A stretch of 13,963 bases of DNA, taken from Pseudobacteriovorax sp. GTDB lineage: Bacteria > Bdellovibrionota_B > Oligoflexia > Oligoflexales > Oligoflexaceae. Position 1 is the first letter of the stretch. Each line of letters opens with the position of its first letter. The translations under genes were made by a program, and so were the position numbers. The notes under the pieces were generated by a model, which was given only the letters and a program-made list of their open reading frames with translations, did no database searches and had not been told where the DNA came from. The stretch spans positions 1-13,963 of the forward strand of contig JBNKNM010000148.1 in the NCBI GenBank assembly GCA_050293845.1, in the 5' to 3' direction. Shown piece by piece: positions 4,724 to 13,963 of this stretch.

Positions 4724-5605
4724 ATGATAACTTTTGGAAAGTGCTCCCAACCCGCCCTTCTCATTCACGGTGGCGCAGGTCCCATGGACCCTAGTGCCAG
4801 TGGGATACAAAATGCTACACAGATTCTAAGAAATATCGCTACAAAGGTTCTGATAGACTCGAAAAAAGACAATCTGCTTCATTATATTGTAGAAGCCTTG
4901 ACAGAAATGGAAAATCATCCTGATTTTAATGCAGGCTTGGGAAGCGCTCTCCAACAGGATGCTGCGATCCGCACCACAGCTGCTATTATGCGCGGTTCCA
5001 GTCGTAGCTTTTCAGGAGTGATTGGTCTCACTCATGTAAAAAATCCTTCCATACTGGCAGCACACCTGCAAACTGCAGATGCACGTGTCCTCACCCATCC
5101 CGGTTGTGAATTTTTAGCACGCGAACTCCAGCTTCCCTTTGATTCTTTATTAACCAGCAAACGTGTGGAGCAATGGCAGAAACGTTTGTCATGCGAAACC
5201 CCTAGAAATGATTGCGATACGGTTGGCGCTATCTATTGGGATGGAAAACGGGAACTCATAGCAGGTACCAGTACAGGAGGAAAAGGTTTAGAATATCCGG
5301 GCCGTGTATCAGATTCAGGAACGGTCGCTGGCAACTACTCTAACGAATATTGTGCCACGGTTGCCACTGGCATCGGTGAAGAAATTGTGGATGATGCCCT
5401 ATGTGCAAAAATTGTCACGCGTGTAAGCGACGGCATGAGCCTAGCTGATGCTTGTCAACGCACCTACCAGGAAGGTCAGCGATATAACCGATCATATGGC
5501 TGGCTGAGCGTAACTGCGGATGGCGAATGGTGCGTCGCTCATACTAGTCCAGCCATGAGCTACTTTGGTTTAACAGAAGATAACAAGAGCTTTGTTTCAA
5601 GCTAA
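4724..5605 (+). CDS. Isoaspartyl peptidase / plant-type L-asparaginase (Ntn hydrolase)
   Basis: IHGGAG, FNAG.GS, autocleavage site D-TVGA (nucleophile Thr), GTSTGG, GRVSDS and ATGIGE. Confidence 0.92.
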   Translation: MITFGKCSQPALLIHGGAGPMDPSASGIQNATQILRNIATKVLIDSKKDNLLHYIVEALTEMENHPDFNAGLGSALQQDAAIRTTAAIMRGSSRSFSGVIGLTHVKNPSILAAHLQTADARVLTHPGCEFLARELQLPFDSLLTSKRVEQWQKRLSCETPRNDCDTVGAIYWDGKRELIAGTSTGGKGLEYPGRVSDSGTVAGNYSNEYCATVATGIGEEIVDDALCAKIVTRVSDGMSLADACQRTYQEGQRYNRSYGWLSVTADGEWCVAHTSPAMSYFGLTEDNKSFVSS

Positions 5606-11203: not shown

Positions 11204-12997
11204 TCATTCCTCATTGAATTCATTCAGAAATAATGATCCATGATCCGGGTATAAAGCAAAAACAGCATTTATCAGGCCAACATGGGAGTACGTTTGCGGA
11301 AAGTTACCCCATAACTCTCCCGAATTCGGATCAACATCTTCACTATAAAGGCCCAGATGATTGCTGTAACTCATCAATTTTTCCAACAATCTGATGGCCT
11401 CTGACCGCCTCCCTAATCGAGCCAGAGCTTCAACCAACCAAAACGAACAAATGAGAAAAGCATTGTTGGTTGCTCCGAAGTCATCACTAGCCACATATCG
11501 ATACAACAAACCATTGGCGTGGGAGAGGTTATCCATGATTTTATTAATCAGCTGATGTGCCTTGGGGTCATTTTTACTCAGATAACCCATATTCACCATC
11601 ATCAGAAGCGACGCATCAAAATCCTCCGAGCCTACCGCCTGAGTATAGCTTTGCGATTGCTCATTCCAAGCAAATTCGTCGATATACTTTGAAATTTTTT
11701 CCTTCAAGGATCGACAATAATGTTCCTGTTTTTCATCATTCATTTTGTGGAAAATTTTTTCTCCAACTAATAAACCTGCCCAGTTCATTAAAAGAGTAAA
11801 TGTATGAATCTGCGCTTTGCCACGAAATTCCCATAGCCCTGCATCCGCCGCAGTTAAGTATCTTTCAACCTGCTTGATGAGCTGCTCAATCAGATCCACA
11901 GGTAGCAGTTTTTTTTCTTTTAAAAATCTTTCGTCAACAAAAATAGGACTGATGGCCATTAATATTTCACCATAAACGTCATATTGCAGATGCTCATACG
12001 CCTGGTTGCCAATACGTACGGGTTTATGATTTTTATAGCCACAAAGCTCACCTAAAATAGCTTCTGTCAGATCCGGATTGCCATCGATGTTATATACAGG
12101 TTGGATAAAAAAGTCCCGTTCCCGAGACTCCTCGACTAAATTATGAAGATATAAAATAAATTTTTCTAGCTCTTCAAAATGAGTCAGACGCTGCAAGGCT
12201 GATAAAGAAAACATCGCATCACGAATCCAGCAATAGCGATAATCCCAATTTCGTTCCGTCCCCTTCGCCTCCGGAATACTTGTCGTGGTAGACGCAATAA
12301 TCGCACCAGTGTCTTCAAACTGGTGCAACTTCAATACTAGAGCCGATCGGATGACTTCTTTCTGAAATCGAGTGGGCAGATGACTATGTTTAATCCAGGT
12401 TTCCCAATACTGGCAAGTTTTTTCAAAAAATTTAAAACATATCTCTTCAAGATCTGCTTCAATAGGTTGCCCATAGGTTAAAGCAAAGTAGAAATTCCTA
12501 TCGACAGAAAAACCCTTGTTCTGGTCTATATAGGTAAGGGGAGCATTACTAGTAAGACGCATCTGGTAGTCATATCCAGAAAATTGGATGTGGTTAGATT
12601 CGATGGTTTGTTTACTCGATTTTTCACCATAGTTAATTTTACAGTCGATTTTAACTCTACATCGAGGTTTCCCGCAAATTGGACGTACTATACGAATCAA
12701 CATCTTTGGCTTGAAATAACGATTGAACTGCAGAAAGCGAGGAGCAAAATCTATGACTTCAAAACTTCCCTTATCATTGGTAAATAGAGTTCGTAGCACG
12801 TTGGTATTGCCAATATAAGATTGGTCTCCATCAGACTCTAGCTCCGGACAAATCTGAAAAACTCCTCCCTTTTCACCAGCAATGAGCCGGCCAAACACAA
12901 AGCTGTCATCAAACCTTGGCCAACAGAGCCAATCAATATTACCATTACGGTTAATTAGCGCACTATACTGACAATTCCCAATAATGCCTTGATCCAT
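11204..12997 (-). CDS. Glycoside hydrolase family 15 (trehalase/glucoamylase-like) with N-terminal trehalase-like domain
   Basis: GIIGNC..SAL, IDWLCWPRFD, RNWDYRYCWIRD, GLWEFR (catalytic Glu), GLYSED (catalytic Glu) and GNFPQTYSH. GGAG SD. No signal peptide. Confidence 0.95.
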   Translation of the reverse strand: MDQGIIGNCQYSALINRNGNIDWLCWPRFDDSFVFGRLIAGEKGGVFQICPELESDGDQSYIGNTNVLRTLFTNDKGSFEVIDFAPRFLQFNRYFKPKMLIRIVRPICGKPRCRVKIDCKINYGEKSSKQTIESNHIQFSGYDYQMRLTSNAPLTYIDQNKGFSVDRNFYFALTYGQPIEADLEEICFKFFEKTCQYWETWIKHSHLPTRFQKEVIRSALVLKLHQFEDTGAIIASTTTSIPEAKGTERNWDYRYCWIRDAMFSLSALQRLTHFEELEKFILYLHNLVEESRERDFFIQPVYNIDGNPDLTEAILGELCGYKNHKPVRIGNQAYEHLQYDVYGEILMAISPIFVDERFLKEKKLLPVDLIEQLIKQVERYLTAADAGLWEFRGKAQIHTFTLLMNWAGLLVGEKIFHKMNDEKQEHYCRSLKEKISKYIDEFAWNEQSQSYTQAVGSEDFDASLLMMVNMGYLSKNDPKAHQLINKIMDNLSHANGLLYRYVASDDFGATNNAFLICSFWLVEALARLGRRSEAIRLLEKLMSYSNHLGLYSEDVDPNSGELWGNFPQTYSHVGLINAVFALYPDHGSLFLNEFNEE

Positions 12998-13144
12998 AGA
13001 ATCTCCGTCTAATCATATACATGTCTTTTTGGTAATATTACACAATTTGAGAAGGAAAGCTAACGAGAGCTTTATGAAGATAAAATTTTATCCGAATAAA
13101 AGTAAGGTAAATCCTTATAAAACTGAAAGTAACTCCCTTATTCA

Positions 13145-13236
13145 CTGCCATAGACATGCACTCCCCCCGACCTACCCCTTGCACGCTCTATGGAGCGCGT
13201 TCCGGTATAGGTGACGTTTCGTGCTCTAATATCCAG
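13145..13236 (-). ncRNA. Candidate structured RNA (long interrupted hairpin) upstream of the GH15-TPS/TPP operon
   Basis: Nested pairings on the minus strand: CUG/CAG, UAGA/UCUA, GCAC/GUGC, ACCUAU/GUAGGU, CC/GG and CGCGCUC-CAUA-GAGCGUG. It is a GC-rich island in AT-rich intergenic DNA. Folded by eye only. Confidence 0.3.
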
Positions 13237-13405
13237 GTCAGGTCAGCCTAGACTTCACACCCCAAGCTAGTTCCTAACCCGTAATCTCTGTGCCTAAATA
13301 GACGCAGCCGGTCCAAGCGCAATTAATCATCACTACTATATGCATAAAACCTCGCATAAACTACCAACCCATCTACATAAATACACAGCGTAGATCCTGT
13401 TTAAA

Positions 13406-13840
13406 ATGCGAAAAAAATTTGCTTCTCACATCATGGTATCGCTAAAACCTGCTTGTTACGTAAGCACGGCCGTAGCAAGGGCTACCGATTTAAATTTTTC
13501 CCAGAACTACAGAAAATACTTTATTAAAATCGTTACTCATACACCTGACCGTATTGAAATATATTCGAAATGATAAGTATAACTTAGATTTAATTCAGTA
13601 TTTACAAGAATATTTCAGAGATATTGAAAACGGTCAAGTCAAACAGGACATTGCTCCCTCAGCTACTCACAGATCGATTTATATACATCTCAGCTTACAT
13701 CACCCTTGTAACAGACCCCCATAAGTTGCTAAGGTACAAATAAAAACGAGATCTTTTTACAGATTTTTCGAAGTAGTTTCCTAGCTGCCAACGACATTCT
13801 TTACTTCGCATGGCTGCTTGACGAGTGTTCCATGAGAGGT
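13406..13840 (+). pseudogene. Possible decayed gene in three fragments, ending at the IS boundary
   Basis: Consecutive stop-free frames 13406-13573 (from ATG), 13494-13724 and 13733-13840. No SD and no recognised family. Confidence 0.2.
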
Positions 13841-13963
13841 GTGAACTACTCGACCCTAAAGGACCGAGCTTCCAGTACTAAGCGGTTTTCGTCGCTTTTC
13901 TCTTCTTTTTTGACGCTTCTCTGCTACGTGCACGGGTTGCTTTCGCTTGCCGCGTCTTAGATG
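13841..13963 (-). mobile_element. IS200/IS605-family element right end with probable omegaRNA (reRNA) scaffold; the element continues beyond the window
   Basis: The minus strand ends GGAAG-CTCGGTCC-TTTA-GGGTCGAG-TAGT-TCAC. The 8-bp subterminal hairpin (13849-13868) pairs fully only on the minus strand (two G-T). GAAG is at its 5' foot (13872-13869) and TCAC is the terminal tetranucleotide (13844-13841). Confidence 0.82.
13878..13961 (-). CDS. C-terminal tail of a probable TnpB-family protein (partial, runs in from the window edge)
   Basis: Open frame SKTRQAKATRARSREASKKKRKATKTA-stop ends 5 nt before the GAAG/hairpin. Its position and basic low-complexity composition fit a TnpB tail overlapping the omegaRNA. 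No RuvC or zinc-finger motif is visible in the window. Confidence 0.55.
   Translation of the reverse strand, partial: SKTRQAKATRARSREASKKKRKATKTA

Follow-up and report, generated by a model that had tools for sequence, protein, structure and literature searches.

The right end of an IS605-type element, with a predicted TnpB omegaRNA scaffold, in a most likely decaying copy at a contig end of Pseudobacteriovorax sp.

Introduction

The TnpB-omegaRNA (reRNA) system of ISDra2 in Deinococcus radiodurans uses the TAM TTGAT and a guide of 16 nt. For IS608, the part of the published account available to us (PMC5934647) gives the right-end guide and cleavage tetranucleotides as GAAT (GR) and TCAA (CR), and those of the left end as AAAG (GL) and TTAC (CL). 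For the ISGst families of Geobacillus stearothermophilus, the accessible portion of the corresponding report sets out a homing model in which TnpB cuts the donor joint, and describes a left-end TAM and a right-end transposon-encoded motif (TEM), both read by DNA guides, an omegaRNA that covariance models define over the ~250 nt preceding the boundary of the right end, and PATEs, which are non-coding derivatives (10.1101/2023.03.14.532601). In the same portion, RF03065 and RF02998 are given as the Rfam families of TnpB-associated RNA (10.1101/2023.03.14.532601).

The stretch of DNA analysed here (the window, 13,963 nt) is contig C148, in its full length, from a metagenome-derived Pseudobacteriovorax sp. 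(Oligoflexaceae) assembly (G000) that comprises 741 contigs and 6.68 Mb and is 96% complete; other contigs of this assembly are likewise cited by C numbers. A preliminary description of the window had proposed that it terminates in an IS200/IS605 right end with a probable TnpB omegaRNA and an adjoining guide. The sections below set this locus beside its copies in the same genome, its relatives in other genomes and the systems named above.

Organization of the right end

On the minus strand, 13963 to 13841 make up the right end (RE) of an element of the IS200/IS605 family, whose boundary lies after TCAC. All features listed in the preliminary description were found on the minus strand of 13821..13963, which is laid out as follows.

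13841..13963, minus strand: the part of the IS605-family RE that the contig covers, and also the 3' half of the omegaRNA scaffold as predicted; its copies in the genome share a precise 3' boundary at 13841, and it scores 102.4 bits against the family model R1.
13931..13954, minus strand: scaffold helix S3 (7 of 10 family pairs in this lineage, with a 3x3 internal loop); by covariation (helix 1), 9 of 9 pairs changed on both sides and 84% of cells paired.
13904..13919, minus strand: conserved, single-stranded motif GAAGCGTCAAAAAAGA, near-invariant in nucleotides among proteins that are only ~50-60% identical.
13880..13897, minus strand: helix S4, overlapping the tnpB stop codon, with 5 of 7 pairs forming in the window copy; double changes in 6 of 6 pairs (helix 3).
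13878..13961, minus strand: tnpB tail, consisting of the final 27 codons and the TAG stop, by homology to the C-terminal ends of a 461-aa Oligoflexus TnpB and of the TnpB in sibling copies.
13869..13872, minus strand: tetranucleotide GAAG, which stands at the hairpin's 5' foot and is the DNA guide GR according to the rule in the available part of PMC5934647.
13849..13868, minus strand: subterminal imperfect palindrome, predicted to be the TnpA binding hairpin and equal to RNA helix S5; 6 of 8 pairs double-changed and 91% paired (helix 4).
13841..13844, minus strand: CR or TEM tetranucleotide TCAC, with the predicted TnpA cleavage and the element boundary after 13841, from the alignment ends and the GR/CR pairing.
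13821..13840, minus strand: flank and putative omegaRNA guide, judged by its position, of which the first ~16 nt (13840-13825) would serve if the system is ISDra2-like.

The frame is open on the minus strand from the contig end to the TAG at 13880-13878, and its C-terminal reading is ...SKTRQAKATRARSREASKKKRKATKTA. The stem GCGGCAAGC/GCAACCCGT noted earlier is present as well, but it proved imperfect in the window copy, where the 3x3 internal loop leaves 7 of the 10 pairs of the family. The terminal hairpin is formed by the arms CTCGGTCC (13868-13861) and GGGTCGAG (13856-13849) around the loop TTTA (13860-13857); it is an imperfect hairpin of 8 bp which, as DNA, contains two G.T mismatches. 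The spacer TAGT (13848-13845) stands between this hairpin and TCAC, the hairpin being 8 nt from the element end, and the flank beyond TCAC reads ACCTCTCATGGAACACTCGT from 13840 to 13821. The two tips of the element, CAAAATGC... and ...TAGTTCAC, are not inverted repeats of each other.

Outside the RE, the contig is chromosomal DNA of an ordinary kind, with genes for a DUF1223 protein, MsrA, an ABC-2 transporter pair, an asparaginase, a CBS protein and a histidine kinase, together with an OtsA-OtsB fusion and a GH15/trehalase-like gene that starts 843 nt downstream of the RE on the same strand. No tRNA or tmRNA was detected in the window. Recognition of the element is of value mainly for annotation: it marks 13841-13963 as mobile-element DNA and not host regulatory sequence, and it accounts for the stop of the contig at 13963, inside a repeat, which is where the assembly breaks.

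Between the RE and the GH15 gene, the non-coding stretches 13471-13544 and 13171-13333 (minus strand) also have repeat matches, at 71-77% identity, on four contigs of the host (C358, C8, C71 and C163) and in three relatives (G001, G002 and G005), some of them at contig starts. Neither stretch contains a tRNA or has an Rfam match, and both probably represent small repeats of another type or conserved leader elements.

Repetition in the host genome

When a 264-nt query was used, 13 other matching places were found in the host assembly. Twelve of the 13 alignments stop at ...GTAGTTCAC, at query position 123 or 124 (equivalent to 13841 or 13840), and the thirteenth (C61) extends to query position 130 across a flank of chance similarity. 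The eight longer copies (C98, C61, C32, C383, C225, C62, C19 and C113) read ...GT(A/C)GTT(C/A)AC and then pass into unrelated flanks. Homologous ends thus do break off exactly at TCAC, and the lack of such ends, which the preliminary description had named as a refutation of its reading, was not observed.

The 5' extent could be read in nine copies, which retain 372, 279, 201, 144, 121, 118, 70, 37 and 37 nt. All nine are truncated or interrupted, the longest (C61) being bounded by another repeat; the C98 copy and the window copy reach contig ends. In C61, it was additionally observed that the tnpB remnant is broken, ~372 nt upstream of its RE, by the end of a repeat common to C186, C182, C50 and C265, whose matches all end at one base, a sign that insertions are nested in a decaying IS. 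The possibility that the truncated RE copies are PATEs or MITEs was considered and rejected, given that a left end was not found on C62, C19, C383, C32 or C225. An orthologous, uninterrupted (empty) site was searched for in 20 relatives with 841 nt of flank, and only short repeats were returned; for none of the copies did an empty site come to light.

A distinct group of mini-elements of ~45 nt was also encountered in the host. Five are clear (C17:6311-6354, plus strand; C8:34660-34703, minus; C71:9699-9742, minus; C76:8464-8507, plus; C158:12573-12616, minus) and two are degenerate (C186:3588-3631, plus; C319, minus). Each is built of a left-end head (TTGAA, the boundary, then C AAAATGCTCGCGCAAT), one hairpin and a right-end tail (TAGTTCAC up to the boundary), and the flanks differ among copies and show no duplication. 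They look like deletions between the near-identical hairpins of the left and right ends, in which they can be compared with solo LTRs, and their shape is REP-like. According to the guide rule, the CAAT foot that they carry should not direct cleavage at TCAC.

Two further repeats of the assembly were noted. On C332, at ~4850-5100 (minus strand), there is a tandem array with at least 14 copies of an 18-nt unit, CGGTGCAGA(A/G)TAGTTCAC, which terminates in the same TAGTTCAC as the RE. Another abundant repeat end has the hairpin CCCCCACC-TAAA-GGAGGGGG and reads ...GGGAGACTAGTTGAC followed by CAGACCACTAGCAA; it was found at dozens of contig ends of the host (C40, C44, C45, C59, C69, C76, C126 and C150, among others), and is probably the end of another, more active IS, which breaks up the assembly.

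Related elements and their transposition genes

The basic frame pointed out in the preliminary description was identified as the C-terminus of TnpB. The window tail is 93% identical to the fragment of the sibling copy on C61, and this fragment matches a 461-aa Oligoflexus TnpB at 83%, or at 76% over the longer stretch of aa 333-461. In the sibling, the frame has 115 residues, with two CxxC pairs and an NADHNAA motif, and its TnpB fragment was matched in 13 of 41 related genomes (G000 counted), five of which contain open frames of 465-514 aa.

The best relative (G005) is a metagenome-assembled genome of Oligoflexus sp., whose element carries a Y1 tnpA of 133 aa or more (PF01797, E 9.7e-41), divergent from the 461-aa tnpB, an order found also in IS605. 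The domains PF12323, PF01385 and PF07282 were detected in this TnpB, which matches the ISDra2 TnpB structures (8bf8/8ex9/8exa, 8h1j) with an E of 6e-18 over residues 8-409. Alignment to an engineered relative (9yyg) places D208, E297 and D397 in GxDxG, xEDL and DxNAA motifs, and we take these residues to be the equivalents of the ISDra2 RuvC catalytic triad; in addition, its two CxxC pairs are aligned to conserved TnpB motifs. The HTH/WED, RuvC (D-E-D) and zinc-ribbon domains of TnpB are therefore present in the relative, the window holding only the last 27 residues. Likewise, the Y1 tnpA is found at the level of the family, in G005, and the window contig ends before any such gene; on two other contigs of the host (C456 and C106), tnpA fragments adjoin tnpB fragments of the same family.

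Past the tnpB stop, the G005 element ends as ...GGAAG-CCCGGCCCCC-TTTA-GGGGGCGTGG-TAGTTCAC and is followed by unrelated DNA. Its foot, spacer and terminus are the same as those of the window RE, and its stem differs from that of the window by compensatory changes. The copies that break after TCAC, together with relatives that carry tnpA and tnpB upstream of the same end, bear out the IS200/IS605 assignment that had been made at the outset.

Additionally, when one genome was scanned for each species, 80 loci encoding relatives were obtained, mostly in Gammaproteobacteria (Endozoicomonas, Vibrio, Pseudoalteromonas, Shewanella, Acinetobacter, Yersinia, Aeromonas and Marinobacter), with further hosts among Oligoflexia, Legionellales and chlamydial metagenome-assembled genomes. 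Relatives of the TnpB were also present in 501 plasmid records, all at less than 60% identity, where they are annotated only as "RNA-guided endonuclease TnpB family protein" or "transposase". The window element belongs, then, to a widespread family of the IS605 type.

Structural conservation of the RNA

Comparison of aligned ends shows covariation, across the family, of three helices within the last ~120 nt. In a plain MAFFT alignment of 22 ends, on which helices S3, S4 and S5 (the terminal hairpin) were defined, 77.8% of the cells are paired, against 62.1% in shuffled alignments and no more than 38.9% after sliding of the partner. Changes on both sides were seen in 18 of 25 pairs, and the covariation score was 0.389 against 0.154, a value reached by none of 500 shuffles. 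A covariance model built from this alignment was then run over 67 sources and recovered 61 ends. In the resulting model-fitted alignment (58 distinct rows from many genera), 86.2% of the cells are paired, 22 of 24 pairs carry double changes, with at least 6 such pairs per helix, and the score rises to 0.550 against 0.173; this alignment leans towards the model, so that the MAFFT figures are the conservative ones. The window, which is in the seed of the model, scores 102.4 bits, and sibling copies outside the seed score 66.9-107 bits.

The conservation extends further upstream. In an alignment of 26 sequences, nucleotide conservation over the last ~235 nt is far above what would be expected from proteins of 50-60% identity, and RNAalifold found on it, upstream of the window portion, two hairpins that covary, as well as a long-range GACG/CGTC pairing (columns 117-120 with 200-203). 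For the CGTC within the motif GAAGCGTCAAAAAAGA, the predicted partner GACG would lie beyond the contig end. The window scaffold is without the 5' ~110 nt of the conserved scaffold, that is, the window holds the 3' ~123 nt of a scaffold of ~230 nt.

The structure covaries, lies on the tnpB strand, overlaps the 3' end of tnpB and ends at the RE boundary. Helix S3 is inside coding sequence; a structured RNA is the simplest reading, since S3 is coding and both S3 and S4 are dispensable for the known hairpin recognition of TnpA. A covarying structure with this placement fits a TnpB omegaRNA scaffold, its position, strand and 3' boundary being as described for TnpB omegaRNAs in the available part of Meers et al. 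In this respect, the comparison of family members speaks for the omegaRNA-type RNA over the tnpB 3' end that the preliminary description had suggested. Its interpretation proved essentially right. Of the TnpB system that it named, the right end and the TnpB tail are there, and no complete tnpB of the family was found in the assembly.

In Rfam searches, the whole window gave no hits at the gathering score, and neither a full relative (L062) nor a sibling copy (L003) gave any at E<=1; at E<=10, only chance-level matches to unrelated families were obtained on 13600-13963 and 12950-13650. The kind of element is already known, and this family of it is without an Rfam model match. Folded as DNA, the hairpin of the window copy has -3.6 kcal/mol (z -1.24), which is equalled by 16 of 200 shuffles, and folding of the 143 nt as RNA gives a z of +0.55. 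The folding energy of the window copy alone is not above chance and is given no weight, for or against, in judging the family; it is repetition and covariation that put the feature far above chance.

Cleavage rules at both ends

The pairing between the hairpin foot and the cleavage tetranucleotide was tallied in the 61 model-aligned ends. GAAG occurs with TCAC in 48 of them and GAAA with TCAT in 5 (Acinetobacter), whereas one end (L058) combines GAAA with TCAC; the others comprise 2 ends with a mutated GR, 3 chimeras of left and right ends and 2 that are degenerate or misaligned. In a distant clade, GAAA/TCAT was found in 9 of the 11 loci examined. Comparative evidence from few independent lineages thus supports covariation of the last foot and cleavage position, as G:C, as A:T and, in IS608, as T:A. 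The preliminary description had read GAAG/TCAC as a compensatory change, which agrees both with this variation within the family and with GAAT/TCAA of IS608, as given in the available part of PMC5934647.

At the left end, 17 relatives (one spurious row, L062, being excluded from the tally) show TTGA-N-C, then 9-10 nt, then GCGCAA-N' and a hairpin. The pair N/N' is A/T in 15 of the 17 (TTGAAC/CAAT), T/A in one (TTGATC/CAAA) and G/C in another (TTGAGC/CAAC). In these 17 relatives and in eight left ends of the host, the hairpin stands 16 nt from the boundary between TTGAA and C; TTGAA(C) precedes six of the eight host left ends, and TTGA[A/T/G]C is found at all 17 of the relatives. On the strength of the covariation, the left cut is predicted to fall after TTGAN (between TTGAA and C), and TTGAA is the predicted TAM of this lineage. 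A second, outer helix was also observed around the left-end hairpin (L062:1850-1930 and the left ends of Endozoicomonadaceae); it reads GCTTGC...GCAAGC in Oligoflexus and CCGGGC...GCCCGG in Endozoicomonadaceae, its arms covarying between lineages.

A mode of action can be proposed from the established mechanism of the family. The Y1 TnpA would bind the imperfect hairpin at 13868-13849 on the single-stranded top strand, which is the minus strand of the window, and pairing of the GAAG foot with TCAC would place the cut after 13841. The 3' part of the tnpB transcript, with the RE, would be processed into an omegaRNA that reads across the boundary, the flank from 13840 to ~13825 acting as the guide for TnpB. 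TnpB may then cut the resealed donor site, in which TTGAA would precede the match to the guide, and the element would be restored by recombination with a sister copy. In the assembly, the first 16 nt of the guide have no second target with fewer than 2 mismatches, and TTGAA precedes none of the near-matches listed; the lack of another near-match is what would be expected of a homing guide.

Integrity of the copy and alternative explanations

The state of the family in the host was assessed by tblastn with the 461-aa TnpB, which returned fragments only and no intact tnpB in the G000 assembly, the longest single stretch being 139 aa. The pieces cover aa 1-139 (C185), 1-96 (C456), 1-70 (C281), 47-154 (C186), 157-272 (C315), 271-425 in two frames (C323), 333-461 (C61) and 384-461 (C225), along with smaller ones. 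The window copy itself has two private substitutions: an A at 13886, where most other copies and most of the Logan depth have another base, breaks a C-G pair of S4 kept by the siblings, and a change at 13853 turns a G-C pair of the hairpin into G.T. In Logan contigs from four runs of one study, the unique path of the window (depth 4.6) joins at ~13887-13915 a shared path whose depth is 26 in X1 and 44 in X2, and the shared repeat continues past 13963 without a break for 112 nt (X1 and X2), 117 nt (X4) or 211 nt (X3). X1 possibly represents the sample of origin. These continuations belong to the shared repeat and are not assignable to the window copy; they hint that this copy is longer than 123 nt and do not imply a whole gene. 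Given the fragmentary tnpB, the truncated copies and the private substitutions, which weaken both S4 and the hairpin, the window copy is most likely a decaying, non-autonomous remnant and not a working system.

The explanation as a whole, namely the RE of an IS605-type element with divergent tnpA and tnpB, bearing an omegaRNA scaffold, in a copy that is most likely a decaying remnant, is held at a probability of about 0.88. It could be argued instead that a complete and active IS605 element is present, with tnpB, tnpA and the left end just beyond the contig and an omegaRNA that is made and used. The frame is indeed open up to the contig end, the score of 102.4 bits is as high as that of intact relatives, the shared-repeat contigs run 112-211 nt past 13963, and a fragmented assembly that breaks at repeats may leave an intact copy unassembled. 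However, no contig holds more than 139 contiguous TnpB residues in one frame, every one of the nine readable copies is truncated or interrupted, and C323, the only contig that ends in a matching upstream part, is cut at ~aa 271 and frameshifted; together with the substitutions in S4 and the hairpin of the window copy, this makes a complete element unlikely. That the feature is a hairpin arisen by chance, an intrinsic terminator or a REP-like repeat of unrelated origin can hardly be entertained, even though the window hairpin taken alone is thermodynamically unremarkable: no T-run follows it, the adjacent 100 nt are conserved with the TnpB C-terminus across many genera, and the copies stop at one base. 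The shared copy boundary, the tnpA and tnpB of G005 and the covariation of the family refute it.

A different proposal would treat the RE as an orphan guide-RNA module that is transcribed without a tnpB of its own, and that either serves a TnpB in trans or acts on the downstream trehalose genes. Several RE modules do have exact 3' ends where no intact tnpB was found, and the RE points to the GH15/trehalase-like gene and the otsA-otsB-type gene. The retained lengths are nevertheless scattered from 37 to 372 nt without a common 5' boundary, several copies are devoid of the upstream helices, the stems of the window copy are weakened rather than preserved, and the assembly contains no further match to the guide, all of which renders such a module highly improbable. 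A bolder version, which we consider improbable too, would hold that the host has lost every working tnpB while keeping RE/omegaRNA modules with exact 3' ends at nine or more loci, with the module of the window representing an orphan guide-RNA gene, perhaps still transcribed and used by a TnpB in trans or exapted to act on the trehalose genes, and the 45-nt chimeras a REP-like end state. The decaying remnant of an IS605-type element is retained as the preferred reading.

Relation to described systems

What is added here is the description of a widespread, uncurated TnpB/omegaRNA family, with its end motifs, TAM prediction, helices and long-range pairing. The most reusable results are the 45-nt chimeric elements with a single hairpin and the covariation at both guide/cleavage pairs.

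The TnpB of the relative shares with that of ISDra2 the RuvC D-E-D residues and the zinc-finger cysteines, and in both systems the scaffold overlaps the 3' end of tnpB and the RE, the guide coming from the flank, as it presumably does here. The predicted TAM TTGAA also resembles the TTGAT of ISDra2. On the other hand, the two scaffolds have no detectable sequence match, and the gene order differs. The RNAs of RF03065 and RF02998 are of the same kind, although the scaffold described here has no Rfam match.

The likeness to the ISGst families concerns the homing model, the two DNA-guided end motifs, the omegaRNA preceding the boundary and the existence of non-coding derivatives, as far as these are set out in the available portion of the report (10.1101/2023.03.14.532601). 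In contrast to those families, as that portion presents them, the element belongs to another TnpB clade and has other motifs, and the host genome displays decay products instead of active copies.

A close parallel at the level of DNA ends is IS608/IS605 of Helicobacter pylori, with its 'peel and paste' TnpA, which, like the window family, has a subterminal imperfect palindrome at each end. The differences from IS608 lie in the cleavage tetranucleotide (TCAC, not TCAA), in a cut placed 8 nt after the hairpin, in the predicted target or TAM (TTGAA versus TTAC), in a longer TnpB of 461 aa and in hosts that include Oligoflexia and many Gammaproteobacteria instead of H. pylori. In both, the cleavage tetranucleotide is set by a DNA guide of 4 nt that stands at the hairpin's 5' foot, and GAAT/TCAA of IS608 and GAAG/TCAC here are the same but for the compensating last position, as far as the available part of PMC5934647 describes the former. 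The natural covariation reported here supports the guide/cleavage rule of IS608 in a distant clade, and it changes no concept.
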